Shown here in pieces: positions 7,330-12,647 of a stretch of 64,000 nucleotides of DNA. This DNA is from Escherichia phage PBM-2: sequence record PV029541. One strand, written 5' to 3'. Positions within the stretch are counted from its first letter, which is position 1. Each line of letters begins with the position of its first letter. The notes beneath the pieces are model-generated. The model saw nothing but the letters and a program-made list of their open reading frames with translations. It was not told the DNA's origin and made no database searches. Position numbers and translations under genes: made by a program.

Positions 7330-7512
7330 ATGCTAATCCCCTTTGAAGTAATCTTTCAGTTAATACTGATAGTTTTATCTGTACTGGTTCTGTCTACGAT
7401 AGTTAGTGCTCATAAGTCTAAGTTTGCATATTACTACTATGGAGCATACTCACTTGGCTGCTTTGTAATGGCAGGATGGATAGCTTTTGCTATCTACTGT
7501 GTAAACAACTAA
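7330..7512 (+). CDS. small membrane protein, two predicted TM helices (60 aa)
   Basis: Track ORF 7297..7512; internal ATG at 7330 has GGAGG RBS; two hydrophobic stretches. Confidence 0.35.
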   Translation: MLIPFEVIFQLILIVLSVLVLSTIVSAHKSKFAYYYYGAYSLGCFVMAGWIAFAIYCVNN

Positions 7513-7540
7513 CCCTCTTAACGGAGGGTTTATTTTTTTA
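7511..7540 (+). terminator. rho-independent terminator (approx. coords)
   Basis: aaccctc/gagggtt stem followed by tattttttta. Confidence 0.6.
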
Positions 7541-7586
7541 CATGTCATGTATACTAATCCTGCTATTTACTTATGAGGAAATTCAT

Positions 7587-8420
7587 ATGCCAACTTTAAA
7601 AGTAGGTTTTAACAAAACCACCAATGTCGCAACTGTACTGGATGCGAGTGGTTCTATCCCGGGTGGTTCAGTAGAAGTAGGTACTTTTGTACACCCGGAT
7701 GCCACTTACCCAGATAGTTTAGTTATTTTTCATGGTGTTCGTGATCTGCTGTATAAACGTTCTGCTAAAGACCCTAGTAAAGCAGGCTTCTGGCCTAACA
7801 ACATCGTGGATATGCAAGCCATCTCTATTGACATGAAAGCTACTCCACGACTGACTGTTGCTACCAAACTGCCTCGTGTAATCTCTGCTATCGAAGGCGA
7901 AGATATTAACTGGCATGTTGATGTAGCAGGTGGTAAAGCACCGTTTACTTATAAATGGCAATTTAAAGCCGATACCGCTGGTGCAGTATTCACTGATATT
8001 GATTCTGGTGATAACGCATCTGCTGCTACTGCAACGTTGACTCTTAATAACGTAACCGCTGCTTCTGCTGGTACTTATAAAGTGATTGTTACTGATGCCA
8101 ATGGAACCACTGTAGAAGATACGACGTTGCTGGCAGTAGGCTACTATGAAGCAAGCTCACTGGTAGCTACTCCTGATTCACTGGCTCTGTCTGTTGCTGA
8201 TGATACTGCTGCCGGTAAGACTGTAACCATTGCTGCTATGCCTGTTGGTTCATCTGCTGGTACTTTGTCTATTAAGACTGCCCCGGATTCTGCCCGTGCT
8301 ACAGCTACCATTTCTGGTAACGTACTGACAGTTAAACCTGTAGCTGCTGGTGAAGCTACTTCTGTAGTAGTTACCAACGGTACGGTCGATGTAACCATCG
8401 CTATTACTGTTGCAGAATAA
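7587..8420 (+). CDS. Ig-like domain protein, putative capsid decoration protein
   Basis: Track ORF 7476..8420; internal ATG at 7587 with GAGG RBS; Thr/Ala/Val-rich beta-strand sequence with GTYKVIVTDANGT and C-terminal Big_2-like segment; N4 encodes its decoration protein at the equivalent position. Confidence 0.5.
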   Translation: MPTLKVGFNKTTNVATVLDASGSIPGGSVEVGTFVHPDATYPDSLVIFHGVRDLLYKRSAKDPSKAGFWPNNIVDMQAISIDMKATPRLTVATKLPRVISAIEGEDINWHVDVAGGKAPFTYKWQFKADTAGAVFTDIDSGDNASAATATLTLNNVTAASAGTYKVIVTDANGTTVEDTTLLAVGYYEASSLVATPDSLALSVADDTAAGKTVTIAAMPVGSSAGTLSIKTAPDSARATATISGNVLTVKPVAAGEATSVVVTNGTVDVTIAITVAE

Positions 8421-8470: not shown

Positions 8471-8501
8471 GACCTCCCTATTGAAGGGAGGTCTTTTTTT
8501 G
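8471..8501 (+). terminator. rho-independent terminator (approx. coords)
   Basis: 8-bp stem gacctccc/gggaggtc followed by seven T. Confidence 0.65.
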
Positions 8502-8525
8502 ACTTAAACATTCTGGAGCCAGGAA

Positions 8526-8714
8526 ATGTATAAAGAGATTGCATTCTTCTCGTTCTTACTGGGTGGTTTAATAGGTGCAGGATTTGTAGCTATTTCTAAT
8601 ACCTACTTTGGTTCTACTCCAAATTCTGTAACACAAACCCTCAAGCATGAATGTGAATTGAATATCCCTCGCAATCAAAACTGTGTAATGAAGTTTGTAC
8701 CGGAGAAGAAATGA
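8526..8714 (+). CDS. small membrane protein (62 aa)
   Basis: ORF track; hydrophobic FFSFLLGGLIGAGFVAI segment. Confidence 0.3.
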   Translation: MYKEIAFFSFLLGGLIGAGFVAISNTYFGSTPNSVTQTLKHECELNIPRNQNCVMKFVPEKK

Positions 8715-8896
8715 AACTTACTCAGTCCCAAGCAATCTTCCTTCGTATGGTTCAAGGTGGTTCTGCCACCAGTAACCGTAATAACAAAACCGCACAGTCT
8801 CTTAAGAAGCTGGGCTTAGTGCAGTTTAATGCTGGTCTTGGGTGGTCATTAACCCCTACCGGAGTACTTCAACTCAACGAATTAAAAGGTAACTAA
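8711..8896 (+). CDS. hypothetical protein (61 aa)
   Basis: ORF track; 4-nt overlap with upstream gene. Confidence 0.3.
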   Translation: MKLTQSQAIFLRMVQGGSATSNRNNKTAQSLKKLGLVQFNAGLGWSLTPTGVLQLNELKGN

Positions 8897-9223
8897 ATGA
8901 AAACTTTAATTGCTGTTGCTGTAGTAGCTTTATCAGCTCTGTCATTCAATGCTCAAGCATCCAGCCGTGAAACCTTGTTGGAAGCTGCTGCTGATTACAA
9001 AGCCAATAATGCAAACTTTGTGAACCAGGGTTACTTCATGGGCATGGTTACTATGGGTGTAGAAGCGGGAAAGAACTGCGTACCAGATAGTTTGAAGTTA
9101 GGAAATGTCTTTGACAAAGTAGCCACTATTATCCTGTACGACCGAAAGGTTAATGCAGTAAAAGTGCCATCAGACATGGTTCTAATGGCAATTGATACAG
9201 CCTACCCATGTATTAAATCTTAA
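8897..9223 (+). CDS. secreted (periplasmic) small protein with two Cys
   Basis: Classic Sec signal peptide MKTLIAVAVVALSALSFNAQA with AQA cleavage site; mature part has Cys in GKNCVPDS and YPCIKS. Confidence 0.45.
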   Translation: MKTLIAVAVVALSALSFNAQASSRETLLEAAADYKANNANFVNQGYFMGMVTMGVEAGKNCVPDSLKLGNVFDKVATIILYDRKVNAVKVPSDMVLMAIDTAYPCIKS

Positions 9224-9257
9224 TTAGTAATTCCATTAACTTTAGGAGAGTAAGTAA

Positions 9258-10310
9258 ATGGCGAGCATTGACTCACTGACCGTATGTAATACACGTCAGG
9301 CCCGTAACTTTATTATTCGTGCCCTGCAAGCAGGTAACGTACCATTCCTGACTTCATCACCAGGCATGGGTAAATCTGCAATTATTCGTTCTGTTGCAGA
9401 AGAATTTGGTATGAAGCTGATAGACCATCGTCTGTCTACTTCTGCCCCGGAAGACTTATCTGGTTTACCATTCCGTAATGGTGACCGTGCAGAGTTTATC
9501 CCATTCGCTGATTTATTCCCTATTGAGGGGGATGAAATACCAGAAGGATATAATGGTTGGCTCTTGTTCCTTGATGAGTTCCCATCTGCTCGCAAAGAAG
9601 TAATAGCTGCTGCATATAAACTGATTCTAGACCGTATGACTGGTCAGAAAAAACTCCATCCTAATGTGATGATTATCTGCGCTGGTAACAAGGCTACTGA
9701 CCGTGCCATTGTTAACCCACTGGGTACTGCAATGCAGTCTCGTGTTGTCCACTTCGAAATGGAACTTAACTTCGACATCTTTGTTGAAGACGTAATGATT
9801 CCACAACAATGGGATGAACGCCTGGTTGCATTCCTACATGCTAATCCAGGTTATCTGCATGACTTTGACCCAGCCCATAAGAACAAAACGTTCTGTTGTC
9901 CTCGTACCTGGGACTTTGTTAATAAAGACCTCAAGAACCGTCCTGAAGGTGCTCTGCCTGACGAAGATTCTATCTACTATGCAGGACACGTTACTGCTGG
10001 TAAGGCTACAGAATTTGTTCAGTTTACTCAGGTATACAATCGTATGATTACGATTGAGAAGGTAGTAAAAGACCCTTTGGGCTGTGCACTACCAGAAGAT
10101 AACAACCTGTGCTGGGCTACCGTTAACCATCTGGCTAACAAAACCACTGAGGAAAACTTCGCTGATGTTCTTCAGTACATCGAACGCTTTAAAACGTTCA
10201 CCCATAAGATTCTGTACTTCCGTACAGTAGGCAGAGCATTACCAGAACTTCAGGCTACCCCTGAATGGCGTAAGGCTGCTGCTAATATCTCTCGTTACCT
10301 TCACGGATAA
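9258..10310 (+). CDS. AAA+ ATPase, MoxR-like
   Basis: Walker A SPGMGKSA, Walker B LLFLDEF; about 350 aa; immediately followed by a VWA-type partner as in MoxR systems. Confidence 0.7.
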   Translation: MASIDSLTVCNTRQARNFIIRALQAGNVPFLTSSPGMGKSAIIRSVAEEFGMKLIDHRLSTSAPEDLSGLPFRNGDRAEFIPFADLFPIEGDEIPEGYNGWLLFLDEFPSARKEVIAAAYKLILDRMTGQKKLHPNVMIICAGNKATDRAIVNPLGTAMQSRVVHFEMELNFDIFVEDVMIPQQWDERLVAFLHANPGYLHDFDPAHKNKTFCCPRTWDFVNKDLKNRPEGALPDEDSIYYAGHVTAGKATEFVQFTQVYNRMITIEKVVKDPLGCALPEDNNLCWATVNHLANKTTEENFADVLQYIERFKTFTHKILYFRTVGRALPELQATPEWRKAAANISRYLHG

Positions 10311-10314
10311 AATA

Positions 10315-11490
10315 ATGAACCAATTTCCTCAGCACTCCCTTAGTGATGAACAACTCATGCGTGAATATGATCGTATTCAGGCTCAGACTTTCCTAGGCAA
10401 GTCTGCTGCGTTCTTTGGTTCATTACTATGTAGCCTTAAGTTCTCATGGAAACGTGAGGATTGTCCCACCGCATGTACTGATGGGATAGAACTACACTTC
10501 AACCCGGATTTCTTTATCTGGATGTGTCCAGACGCAAGAGAAACAGTGTTAATGCACGAACTCTGGCATGTAGCATATCTGCATGACATCCGTCGTGGAA
10601 GCCGTGACCCAGAAATCTGGAACCAGGCATGTGACCACTTCATTAACCTCCAGTTAGAAGAAGATGGTTACAAGTTCACTGGTATTGATGAAGGTATTTG
10701 CAAAGACCCTCAATATAAAGGATGGGTTGAAGAAGACATCTACGATGACCTGATGAAGAACCCTCAGAAAAGGCAGAAGCCGTCAGGGGGTGCTGGAGCA
10801 GGTCTTGCTGGCGACATGAAATCCCCCTCTTCGGGGCAGTCCCAGGGTGCTGTTGTCAACAACGTAGTACGTGCAATGCAGAGCCAGAAAATGGCTGGTG
10901 GAACAATGCCTGGTAAGGGTGCTGGTCGTATGGAAGAGGTTATTACCCAATTCCTCAAACCAGTGGTTCCATGGCAGGAAGTTCTGATGAACTTCTTTAC
11001 CGACATTGACGATACTCATTATACGTGGGCCAGACCTAACCGTCGTTACACTGACATCTATCTACCTTCCATGGAAGATGATGAAGGACGTCTACGACAC
11101 TTAGCCTACTTTGAGGATGTATCTGGTTCCATTAGTAGTGCTGACTCTCTGCGATTTAACTCAGAAGTTGCCTATGTCAAGAGCCAGTTCAATCCTAAGA
11201 AGATGTCCTTAATTACCTTCGACGATATTATCCAAGAAGAGATAGACATCACTGAAGAAGATACTTTTGAAGAGATTAAGATTACTGGTCGTGGTGGTAC
11301 AAGCCTTGTGCCAGTACGAGATTGGATTATTAAGAATAAGCCAACTGCTGCAATCATATTCTCCGATATGTATGTTCATCCAATGGAAGAATTACCATTT
11401 GATATTCCTATCATCTGGTGTGTTCTGAATAATCCCAATGCTACCGTACCTTTTGGGGAGGTAGTTCATATCCCTAAAGGAATGAAATAA
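10315..11490 (+). CDS. VWA-domain protein with N-terminal HExxH metallopeptidase-like motif (MoxR partner)
   Basis: VLMHELWHVAYLHD (HExxH); gene pairing with the MoxR-like ATPase; C-terminal half consistent in size with a VWA fold. Confidence 0.55.
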   Translation: MNQFPQHSLSDEQLMREYDRIQAQTFLGKSAAFFGSLLCSLKFSWKREDCPTACTDGIELHFNPDFFIWMCPDARETVLMHELWHVAYLHDIRRGSRDPEIWNQACDHFINLQLEEDGYKFTGIDEGICKDPQYKGWVEEDIYDDLMKNPQKRQKPSGGAGAGLAGDMKSPSSGQSQGAVVNNVVRAMQSQKMAGGTMPGKGAGRMEEVITQFLKPVVPWQEVLMNFFTDIDDTHYTWARPNRRYTDIYLPSMEDDEGRLRHLAYFEDVSGSISSADSLRFNSEVAYVKSQFNPKKMSLITFDDIIQEEIDITEEDTFEEIKITGRGGTSLVPVRDWIIKNKPTAAIIFSDMYVHPMEELPFDIPIIWCVLNNPNATVPFGEVVHIPKGMK

Positions 11491-11996
11491 TGGTTGTTAA
11501 TGGTAATTCTCTATACCGTTCATCTCAGTTGCTGGATGTCCCAGACCGTAAGATATCAGAGCATGGTGTAAGCTATGGATTAGGTGAAGCTGGTTATGAT
11601 ATTCGTATCAAACAAGACATTACCTTCTATCGCTTATTTGGGTTGATTCCAATGGTGAAAGTCGTTGATGGAAATCAAGTATCACGCCATCTCGGTAAGT
11701 TCACCTTGGCTTCAGCAATTGAGAAGTTCAACATGTCTCCATCCTGTGTAGCTATCGTTCACGATAAGTCTACGTGGGCAAGACGTGCATTATCAGTGTT
11801 CAATACCGTGATTGAGCCAGGTTGGAAAGGGTATCTTACCCTTGAACTGGTCTATCATGGTCGTAAGAAACTACATATCCCGGCTGGTGCTGGGATAGCT
11901 CAAGTATTATTTCATCTGGTTCAGGAACCTGCTAATTACAATGGCAAGTATCAGAACCAGGAAAACCAACCAGTAGCTGCTAGACCTTCAAAATAA
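11490..11996 (+). CDS. dcd: dCTP deaminase (dUTPase-fold)
   Basis: GYDIRIKQDITF and IEPGWKGYLTLELVYHG match dCTP deaminase signature regions. Confidence 0.6.
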   Translation: MVVNGNSLYRSSQLLDVPDRKISEHGVSYGLGEAGYDIRIKQDITFYRLFGLIPMVKVVDGNQVSRHLGKFTLASAIEKFNMSPSCVAIVHDKSTWARRALSVFNTVIEPGWKGYLTLELVYHGRKKLHIPAGAGIAQVLFHLVQEPANYNGKYQNQENQPVAARPSK

Positions 11997-12026
11997 AAGG
12001 CTATCCAGCTTAATTAAGGAAACAAC

Positions 12027-12227
12027 ATGTCAGTATTTCAAGTAACTCCTGTTGGCAGTACCGTGCGTAAAACTATTGTTGCAACTAACGTAGTAGATGT
12101 AGATGAGACATCAGTCGGTGCTGTAATTCATCTGATTGATGGGCGAACAGTATCTGTAAAAGAAAGTTACCGTTCTGTGCGTGGTTACGTTCGTAAAGCT
12201 TTAACTGCTGTCTCTGACGCAGAGTAA
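12027..12227 (+). CDS. hypothetical protein (66 aa)
   Basis: ORF track; RBS-like aaggaaacaac upstream. Confidence 0.3.
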   Translation: MSVFQVTPVGSTVRKTIVATNVVDVDETSVGAVIHLIDGRTVSVKESYRSVRGYVRKALTAVSDAE

Positions 12228-12300
12228 GTAGCTGCCTAAATAGCCCAGCATAGTTGGGCTATTTGTGAAGAAACTAACTCAACCCCACATAGGAACCATC

Positions 12301-12543
12301 ATGGAATCTTTAGCAGCAATCCTTGTTTTCTTATTCATACTAGCTGTATACCTCATCCCTACTATCATTGCTTTTGCACGAGGCCATGCCTCCAAGTGGG
12401 GTATTGGTGTACTCAATATTGTATTAGGCTGGTCACTGGTATTCTGGGTAGTAGCACTGATTTGGGCACTGTCCAACAAAGGGCAAAGCCAAGTTACAAA
12501 CGTAACTGTTGTTCAAACCAATGGCGGTAGTAAAGCAGAGTAA
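12301..12543 (+). CDS. superinfection immunity protein (T4 Imm-like), membrane
   Basis: Track ORF 12265..12543; YLIPTIIAFARGH...LNIVLGWSLVFWVVALIWAL matches my recollection of the Imm-type family; two TM helices; AGGA RBS before internal ATG at 12301. Confidence 0.55.
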   Translation: MESLAAILVFLFILAVYLIPTIIAFARGHASKWGIGVLNIVLGWSLVFWVVALIWALSNKGQSQVTNVTVVQTNGGSKAE

Positions 12544-12618
12544 CTAACCTAAGCATCATTACATAGTGGTGCTTGTGGAAGTTACTTCCAGCTCATTGCT
12601 TATCCATCTCCTAACCCA

Positions 12619-12647
12619 AGCCCACCTAACCAGTGGGCTTTTTTATT
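12619..12647 (+). terminator. rho-independent terminator (approx. coords)
   Basis: aagcccac/gtgggctt stem followed by ttttttattt. Confidence 0.6.

Follow-up and report, generated by a model that had tools for sequence, protein, structure and literature searches.

The ATPase gene and its partner

At positions 9258-11490 of the window (here the whole 64,000-nucleotide stretch of Escherichia phage PBM-2, sequence record PV029541), we predict a gene pair for a MoxR-like AAA+ ATPase and a partner protein that joins a zincin-like domain to a VWA domain. Two open reading frames (ORFs) fill this interval exactly (Table 1). An initial annotation had placed adjacent genes for an ATPase and an HExxH/VWA protein here; that observation is confirmed, and all three motifs it quoted (Walker A GMGKS, Walker B LLFLDEF and HExxH) are present.

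The ATPase ORF is preceded by a good ribosome-binding site. The VWA gene starts 4 nucleotides past the ATPase stop, and its own stop overlaps the start of a dCTP deaminase gene by one base. The two genes are probably co-transcribed and probably translationally coupled. The transcription unit also contains three small ORFs upstream of the pair and two small ORFs after the dCTP deaminase gene; the terminator-like hairpins at its two ends come from a consensus scan only. Across the pair, the sequence is 100% identical to that of Escherichia phage PBM-3 (Gamaleyavirus, G7C-like; N4-like family Schitoviridae), and about 50 related coliphages are 90-95% identical.

Table 1. Coordinates of the ATPase gene, the partner gene, their predicted motifs and domains, and associated features in the window
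Feature	Position in window	Strand	Residues	Basis or remark
MoxR-like AAA+ ATPase gene, N4 gp24 homologue	9258..10310	+	350 aa	ORF
Walker A GMGKS	9363..9377	+	36-40	P35, G38, K39, S40 invariant in 23 homologues
Conserved loop DHRLSTSAPEDLSGLP	9423..9470	+	56-71	D56, H57, R58, S62, P64, D66, G69, P71 invariant
Walker B LLFLDEF	9561..9581	+	102-108	D106, E107 invariant
Sensor-1 CAGN (N144) to candidate arginine finger QSR (R162)	9678..9743	+		A142, G143, N144, S161, R162 invariant
Zincin-like and VWA protein gene, N4 gp25 homologue	10315..11490	+	391 aa	ORF, Pfam, tblastn
HELWH and H90, putative zinc site and catalytic Glu	10555..10584	+	81-85, 90	Conservation, predicted helix 72-87
ACDHFIN motif, D107 candidate third zinc ligand	10627..10647	+	105-111	Conservation
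Gly/Ser-rich disordered linker with GDM (D167)	10762..10848	+	150-178	Predicted local distance difference test (pLDDT) ~60; <50 at aa 158-164
Conserved segment WARPNRRYTDIYLPS, just ahead of VWA domain	11026..11070	+	238-252	Conservation
VWA domain	11101..11472	+	263-386	Pfam; metal ion-dependent adhesion site (MIDAS) complete
MIDAS D268-x-S270-x-S272	11116-11130		268-272	
MIDAS T329	11299-11301		329	
MIDAS D351	11365-11367		351	
Probable transcription unit with the pair	8471..12640	+		Terminator-like hairpins 8471-8493, 12618-12640
dCTP deaminase	11490-11996			Downstream of VWA gene; Pfam DCD 7.2e-16

The partner protein

The partner is matched by two Pfam families, DUF2201_N ("putative metallopeptidase domain", residues 17-253, E-value 4.4e-56) and DUF2201 ("VWA-like domain", E-value 4.7e-34). 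These matches bear out both a VWA domain and an HExxH metallopeptidase-like motif, as the initial annotation had proposed. The VWA fold was tested and recovered, with the VWA domains of NorD and BchD among the partner's matches, and in the predicted model H81, E82 and H85 sit on one helix.

For the conservation counts, two sets were aligned to the family profile: the closest 120 clusters at 90% identity and the best 150 representatives at 50% identity. The MIDAS residues D268, S270, S272, T329 and D351 are kept in all 120 close clusters and in 148-150 of the 150 representatives. All 120 close clusters also retain H81, E82 and H85, as do 137 of the 146 representatives that could be aligned (~94%). 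MIDAS conservation therefore exceeds HExxH conservation in this family.

Further positions of the N-terminal domain are nearly as constant. H90 is kept in 139 of 146 representatives (six have D instead), D107 in 145 of 148, and N111 in 136. With rV5-like, jumbo phage and cyanophage homologues added (22-30% identity), HExxH, N103, A105, D107, I110 and N111 are invariant. D107 is predicted to lie on the helix next after the HExxH helix, 22 residues past H85, and it is on the helix after HExxH that gluzincins and aspzincins carry their third zinc ligand. Both H90 and D107 are possible candidates for this ligand, judging from position and conservation.

Two segments outside the putative active sites are also conserved in a 20-sequence alignment of the partner. 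D167 of the GDM motif, within the predicted disordered linker, is invariant. In WARPNRRYTDIYLPS (WARPNRRY..YLPS) the invariant residues are W238, P241, R244, Y249, L250 and P251, and the P-x-R-R core is retained in the rV5-like, jumbo phage and cyanophage homologues; the model has confidence below 50 across residues 232-252.

The ATPase

Hidden Markov model assignment places the partner in DUF2201_N and DUF2201; for the ATPase, the generic AAA family alone passes the threshold (1.2e-5). The dynein-related AAA_5 family scores 14.9 bits against a cutoff of 22 (E 0.028), and bpMoxR scores 13.3 bits against a cutoff of 27 (E 0.044). Among 23 homologues that are 49-82% identical to the window protein, AAA_5 matches 14 at E<=0.05 (best 1.6e-4) and bpMoxR matches four. 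Neither protein gave an informative match in PADLOC or NCBIfam.

In its predicted fold the ATPase most resembles dynein, midasin and the MoxR proteins CbbQ and NorQ, the last two being the closest small solved relatives; clamp loaders and Clp/Hsl-type unfoldases rank below this group. When PDB sequences were searched with a profile, midasin gave a weak match (E 3.9e-4), and the PDB sequence searches found no relative beyond it. The assignment of sensor 1 and of the candidate arginine finger (Table 1) follows the usual AAA+ layout.

The stretch of highest conservation in the ATPase is the loop DHRLSTSAPEDLSGLP, which follows strand 2 and precedes the Walker B strand. This is the position of the helix-2 insert in the MoxR/dynein/midasin clade of AAA+ proteins, and we infer that the loop corresponds to that insert. 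In the predicted model, residues 59-99 (between the strand at 52-58 and the strand at 100-106) form short strands and the conserved loop, with no single helix; confidence is low at residues 66-73, as expected for a flexible loop.

We conclude that the ATPase belongs to the dynein/midasin/MoxR structural group as a divergent member whose catalytic motifs are all intact. The "MoxR-type" label of the initial annotation is supported by fold, motifs and gene context, but the curated MoxR sequence models miss this protein.

Pairing and distribution

The genes are homologous to N4 genes 24 and 25. Gene 24 ("Unknown") and gene 25 ("vWFA domain") are among the 14 core genes of N4-like phages and are middle transcripts (PMC4193335). 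Elsewhere gp24 is described as a "putative ATPase, AAA superfamily" and gp25 as "vWFA super-family", with no assigned function (PMC2784036). The initial annotation had likewise stated that N4-like phages carry a homologous pair lacking an assigned function.

Pairing is consistent across related loci. In a sample of 77 IMG/VR loci encoding partner relatives (38-98% identity), 72 had enough upstream DNA to be assessed, and all 72 have an ATPase homologue upstream on the same strand. The two genes are mostly direct neighbours and occasionally lie 0.2-3.6 kb apart. In the recurring order, a gene for subunit 2 of RNA polymerase II (RNAP II) is found further upstream, followed by the ATPase and VWA genes, and then by dCTP deaminase and ThyX in most loci. 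Searches of phage records with tblastn found the partner in 730 and the ATPase in 823, with near-identical genus distributions. The hosts of the N4-like carriers include Escherichia, Pseudomonas, Vibrio, Rhizobium and roseobacters, and the tblastn matches to the partner in LIT1 and EE36phi1 are annotated "N4 gp25-like protein".

Homologues of both proteins also occur in jumbo phages (23-30% identity by tblastn). In jumbo phage WPEC3 the pair is adjacent, with genes annotated as virion structural before it and DprA-like and thymidylate synthase genes after it. The rV5-like phage MaxTheCat encodes a MoxR ATPase ~3.7 kb from the VWA gene, and cyanophage MinM2 encodes one ~2 kb upstream of the VWA gene, with a primase nearby. 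In MinM2 (Synechococcus phage; L009 629-5086), a DUF3150 protein and small ORFs lie between the two genes, and in some lineages DUF3150 might serve as a third component.

A partner-profile search of 1.84 billion cluster representatives returned 20,943 matches at E<=1e-3 and 4,908 at E<=1e-30. A scan of genome contigs gave no cellular context; it returned three phage-sized or phage-like contigs in metagenome-assembled genomes, one 357-bp fragment and one partial VWA match (Methylomonas). One contig from a Roseococcus metagenome-assembled genome (L003, 296,681 bp) encodes a gp25 homologue that is 50% identical, and its length far exceeds that of any N4-like genome. Either an N4-like provirus has integrated there or the assembly is chimeric.

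Mobile elements and annotation of the locus

Several homologues are interrupted at conserved sites. Three partner sequences (P0244, P0248 and P0338) have inserts between A105 and C106 of the ACD motif. The insert in P0248 is an intein (Pfam Intein_splicing, 4.7e-11, above threshold), and those in P0244 and the fragment P0338 have sub-threshold Hint/intein matches only. In Shigella phage pSb-1 (L018 4273-5140), the ATPase gene is broken at codons 66-68, within the invariant PED/LSG loop, by an 868-nucleotide insert. The insert contains a 215-amino-acid HNH ORF and matches the group I intron model Rfam RF00028 below threshold (26.8 bits, E 2.3e-4). EDLSGLP is restored if the boundaries are drawn so that a U precedes the 5' splice site and the intron ends in G. 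From these features, the insert is probably a group I intron. Two truncated ATPase calls (P0141 and P0145) may represent the same or a similar interrupted allele. In phage G7C (L013 5525-6001), a free-standing ORF for a 158-amino-acid protein resembling HNH homing endonucleases lies exactly between the ATPase and VWA genes.

Inteins, introns and homing endonucleases usually home to conserved sites in important genes, so mobile elements at the ACD motif and the PED/LSG loop fit the conservation data. We regard the ACD motif and the PEDLSG loop as candidate functional sites.

The pSb-1 VWA gene is split into ORFs of 195 and 204 amino acids. We rejected the idea that this is a natural two-polypeptide form of gp25, as the split results from two 1-nucleotide deletions in C-runs (L018 ~6446 and ~6508), which are most simply sequencing errors. 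This split may underlie the separate family phrog_30358 (residues 188-391).

The partner is labelled "HNH endonuclease" in GenBank PV053165 (PBM3_57c), in many RefSeq records and in phrog_1314. This identification is not supported: no Pfam HNH family matches the partner at E<=0.1, and DUF2201_N and DUF2201 explain its whole length. The label looks like a propagated mis-annotation, and it may stem from the real HNH genes beside or inside the locus in relatives. An "HNH endonuclease" appears in virion proteomics of close relatives among many non-structural proteins; we rejected this as a sign of virion association, since it indicates expression at most. We propose the label "metallopeptidase/VWA domain protein, N4 gp25-like" for the partner.

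Related systems

The pair is already catalogued: its observation adds nothing to Pfam and the N4 and jumbo phage literature, and the phage genome is in GenBank. The homologous N4 genes gp24/gp25 share the gene order and lie at the matching place in the genome, with RNAP II ahead of them and dCTP deaminase and thymidylate synthase behind. We see no substantive difference from them, and the window holds the Gamaleyavirus copy, which is 61% identical to the copy on contig L017.

Group 2.2 jumbo phages encode a MoxR and metallopeptidase-vWA chaperone/co-chaperone pair (Iyer, Anantharaman, Krishnan, Burroughs, Aravind 2021, PMC7824862). The two-protein architecture is the same as that of the window pair. 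A role in virion assembly with peptidolytic processing was proposed for the jumbo phage proteins, citing a precedent in Acidianus two-tailed virus (ATV) (PMC7824862), whereas the N4-like pair consists of middle genes of a 70-kb podophage.

The coupling of MoxR and VWA proteins in other systems has been reviewed (PMC7159879). CbbQ/CbbO and NorQ/NorD (MoxR CGN subfamily) also have VWA partners, but these lack an HExxH domain; their clients, Rubisco and nitric oxide reductase, are absent here, and the similarity in sequence does not reach Pfam thresholds. Midasin/Rea1 and dynein differ in being giant single chains in which six AAA modules are concatenated; in the window pair the MIDAS is on a protein of its own, and the single 350-amino-acid AAA module is presumed to form oligomers.

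An AAA+ motor and an HExxH zincin also work together in FtsH and other AAA+ proteases, as we predict here; this likeness is an analogy, with no homology shown. FtsH has both activities in one membrane-anchored chain and belongs to another AAA+ clade and to peptidase family M41. Unlike FtsH, the window pair is predicted to have the two activities on separate soluble proteins bridged by the VWA domain.

Predicted function

We consider it probable that the window pair is a two-component MoxR-VWA machine for ATP-driven remodelling or processing, with the two genes being copies of the N4 gp24/gp25 core pair. This agrees with the interpretation in the initial annotation, which we judge to be supported as a prediction. 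An outline of the mechanism can be modelled on CbbQ/CbbO, NorQ/NorD, RavA/ViaA and midasin. In this outline, the metal of the MIDAS would capture an acidic residue of the target protein. The ATPase ring would grip the VWA protein or the target, probably via the invariant DHRLSTSAPEDLSGLP loop, and ATP hydrolysis by the ring would remodel or extract the target. In most lineages the zincin domain could then cut the exposed polypeptide, and the pair would act as an adaptor-bridged ATP-dependent metalloprotease.

Several observations weigh against this prediction. The catalytic Glu, a zinc-binding His or both are replaced in nine of the 146 representatives, and all nine keep the full MIDAS (L087 2390-4631, P0297, P0301, P0323, P0329, P0355, P0356, P0358 and P0379). 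The replacements are HQxxH, EExxH, KVxxH, HIxxH, HLxxH, KAxxS, HQxxT, HGxxR and HSxxQ. Two of these loci were looked up, and both are ordinary N4-like contexts with the VWA gene directly behind the ATPase gene. In L087, the one such lineage that was translated, the ATPase retains Walker A, Walker B, AGN and SR. Proteolysis therefore cannot be universally required. The ATPase misses the curated MoxR-type Pfam thresholds. Searches of the partner against PDB sequences (as a single protein, with a full-length profile and with an N-terminal-domain profile) found no significant relative. The only solved proteins touched by the N-terminal-domain profile, none significantly, are the M48 peptidases HtpX (E 0.26) and BepA (E 0.41) and the minigluzincin MJ1213 (E 0.86); these alignments span the strand and HExxH helix of the partner domain, which is thematically consistent but is not evidence, and the third ligand in those proteins is Glu, whereas the candidate here is D107 or H90. 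A physical interaction between the two proteins is suggested only by synteny and analogy. Literature searches found no functional study of gp24/gp25; the CRISPRi-ART paper mentions N4 for rIIA/rIIB only.

The initial annotation had named loss of the HExxH region among homologues as a result that would speak against it, and the motif is kept in the great majority and lost in these nine. From these alignments, selection on the peptidase site appears to be strong and not universal, and selection on the MIDAS and the ATPase appears to be universal. Since HExxH, unlike the MIDAS and the ATPase, is sometimes lost, ATP-driven, MIDAS-mediated remodelling may be the core activity, with proteolysis added and usually retained.

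A more specific form of the prediction is speculative, and we think it unlikely to hold in full. In this form the proteins would be a split two-protein ATP-dependent protease, in which the MoxR ring exposes MIDAS-captured substrates to the partner zincin; D167 might be an internal latch on the MIDAS or on the zinc site that is released by the ATPase, and the protease would be essential for replication in N4-like and several other large phage groups.

The target of the machine is more likely to be a phage protein or a highly conserved host protein, because the genes are of the middle class, have RNAP II and nucleotide metabolism genes as neighbours and are universal in N4-like phages. It is more likely needed in the replication or takeover phase or in assembly than to be a strain-specific defence factor.

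The main rival is a structural client, with the pair serving as a virion assembly chaperone or maturation protease that folds, processes or loads structural or ejected proteins such as the giant virion RNA polymerase or the capsid. An assembly role is what was proposed for the homologous jumbo phage pair, where tail development in ATV provides a MoxR-VWA precedent (PMC7824862). The pair in WPEC3 is directly behind genes annotated as virion structural, a structural-looking Ig-domain protein is encoded ~1 kb upstream in the window, and roseophages have a second structural module near the gp24/gp25 homologues (PMC4193335). However, the N4 genes are middle and not late transcripts (PMC4193335), and the conserved neighbours in N4-like phages are RNAP II, dCTP deaminase and ThyX rather than structural genes. 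Even in WPEC3 the downstream genes are DprA-like and thymidylate synthase, and MinM2 has a primase nearby. We regard this role as rather unlikely.

The remaining two explanations are less likely than a structural client. In the first, the proteins would be a non-proteolytic MoxR-VWA maturation factor for metal or cofactor insertion or for activation of a complex, modelled on NorQ/NorD, CoxD/CoxE, CbbQ/CbbO, or the BchI/BchD or CobS/CobT chelatases, and the HExxH domain would serve for binding only. The solved relatives CbbQ and NorQ and the NorD and BchD matches would fit, as would the nine representatives that have a MIDAS and no HExxH (with an intact ATPase in the lineage checked) and the neighbouring genes for metallo- and flavo-enzymes of nucleotide metabolism. 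But HExxH, H90, D107 and N111 vary little or not at all in the great majority, very distant phage groups at 22-30% identity included, and inteins target the ACD site; together these point to an active site under strong selection, which would not be needed for binding alone. Moreover, in the loci examined, neither a chelatase large subunit nor a client enzyme co-varies with the pair. We find this explanation improbable.

Anti-defence genes are usually accessory and variable, which weighs against the second explanation, in which the pair would be a protease for host takeover or anti-defence and would destroy a host protein (of a defence system, or a replication or transcription factor). Expression before the late genes, a region rich in small host-interaction ORFs, and a protease-plus-unfoldase logic that suits targeted destruction would favour it, but the pair is universal core in N4-like phages of very different hosts (PMC4193335) and has no matches in PADLOC (a library of defence, not counter-defence), and we consider this role very improbable.

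Neighbouring genes

Directly upstream of the ATPase gene, positions 8897-9223 encode a 108-amino-acid protein with an N-terminal segment resembling a signal peptide. It has a weak, below-threshold Pfam match to the Rap1a type VI immunity family (E 0.002), and is named "tai4 protein" in GenBank; a homologue was found only in the closest (Gamaleyavirus-like) loci. Positions 7476-8420 encode a 314-amino-acid protein with below-threshold Pfam immunoglobulin matches (Ig_3 6.2e-6, I-set 2.8e-4), annotated in GenBank as "fibritin (wac)". This is the structural-looking protein ~1 kb upstream of the pair, and it lies within the early/middle region. At the end of the pair's probable transcription unit, positions 12265-12543 encode a hydrophobic protein of 92 amino acids, named "immunity protein" in GenBank.

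Significance

The genes gp24 and gp25 are two of the ~14 genes common to all N4-like phages, and homologous pairs also occur in rV5-like, jumbo and Vi1-like phages and in some cyanophages. Our analysis adds the finding that the MIDAS is better conserved than HExxH, identifies the ACD motif and the PEDLSG loop as candidate sites, and flags an annotation error. Identification of the substrate would close one of the last gaps in our picture of the N4 core genome and would show whether MoxR-VWA machines can couple to proteolysis.

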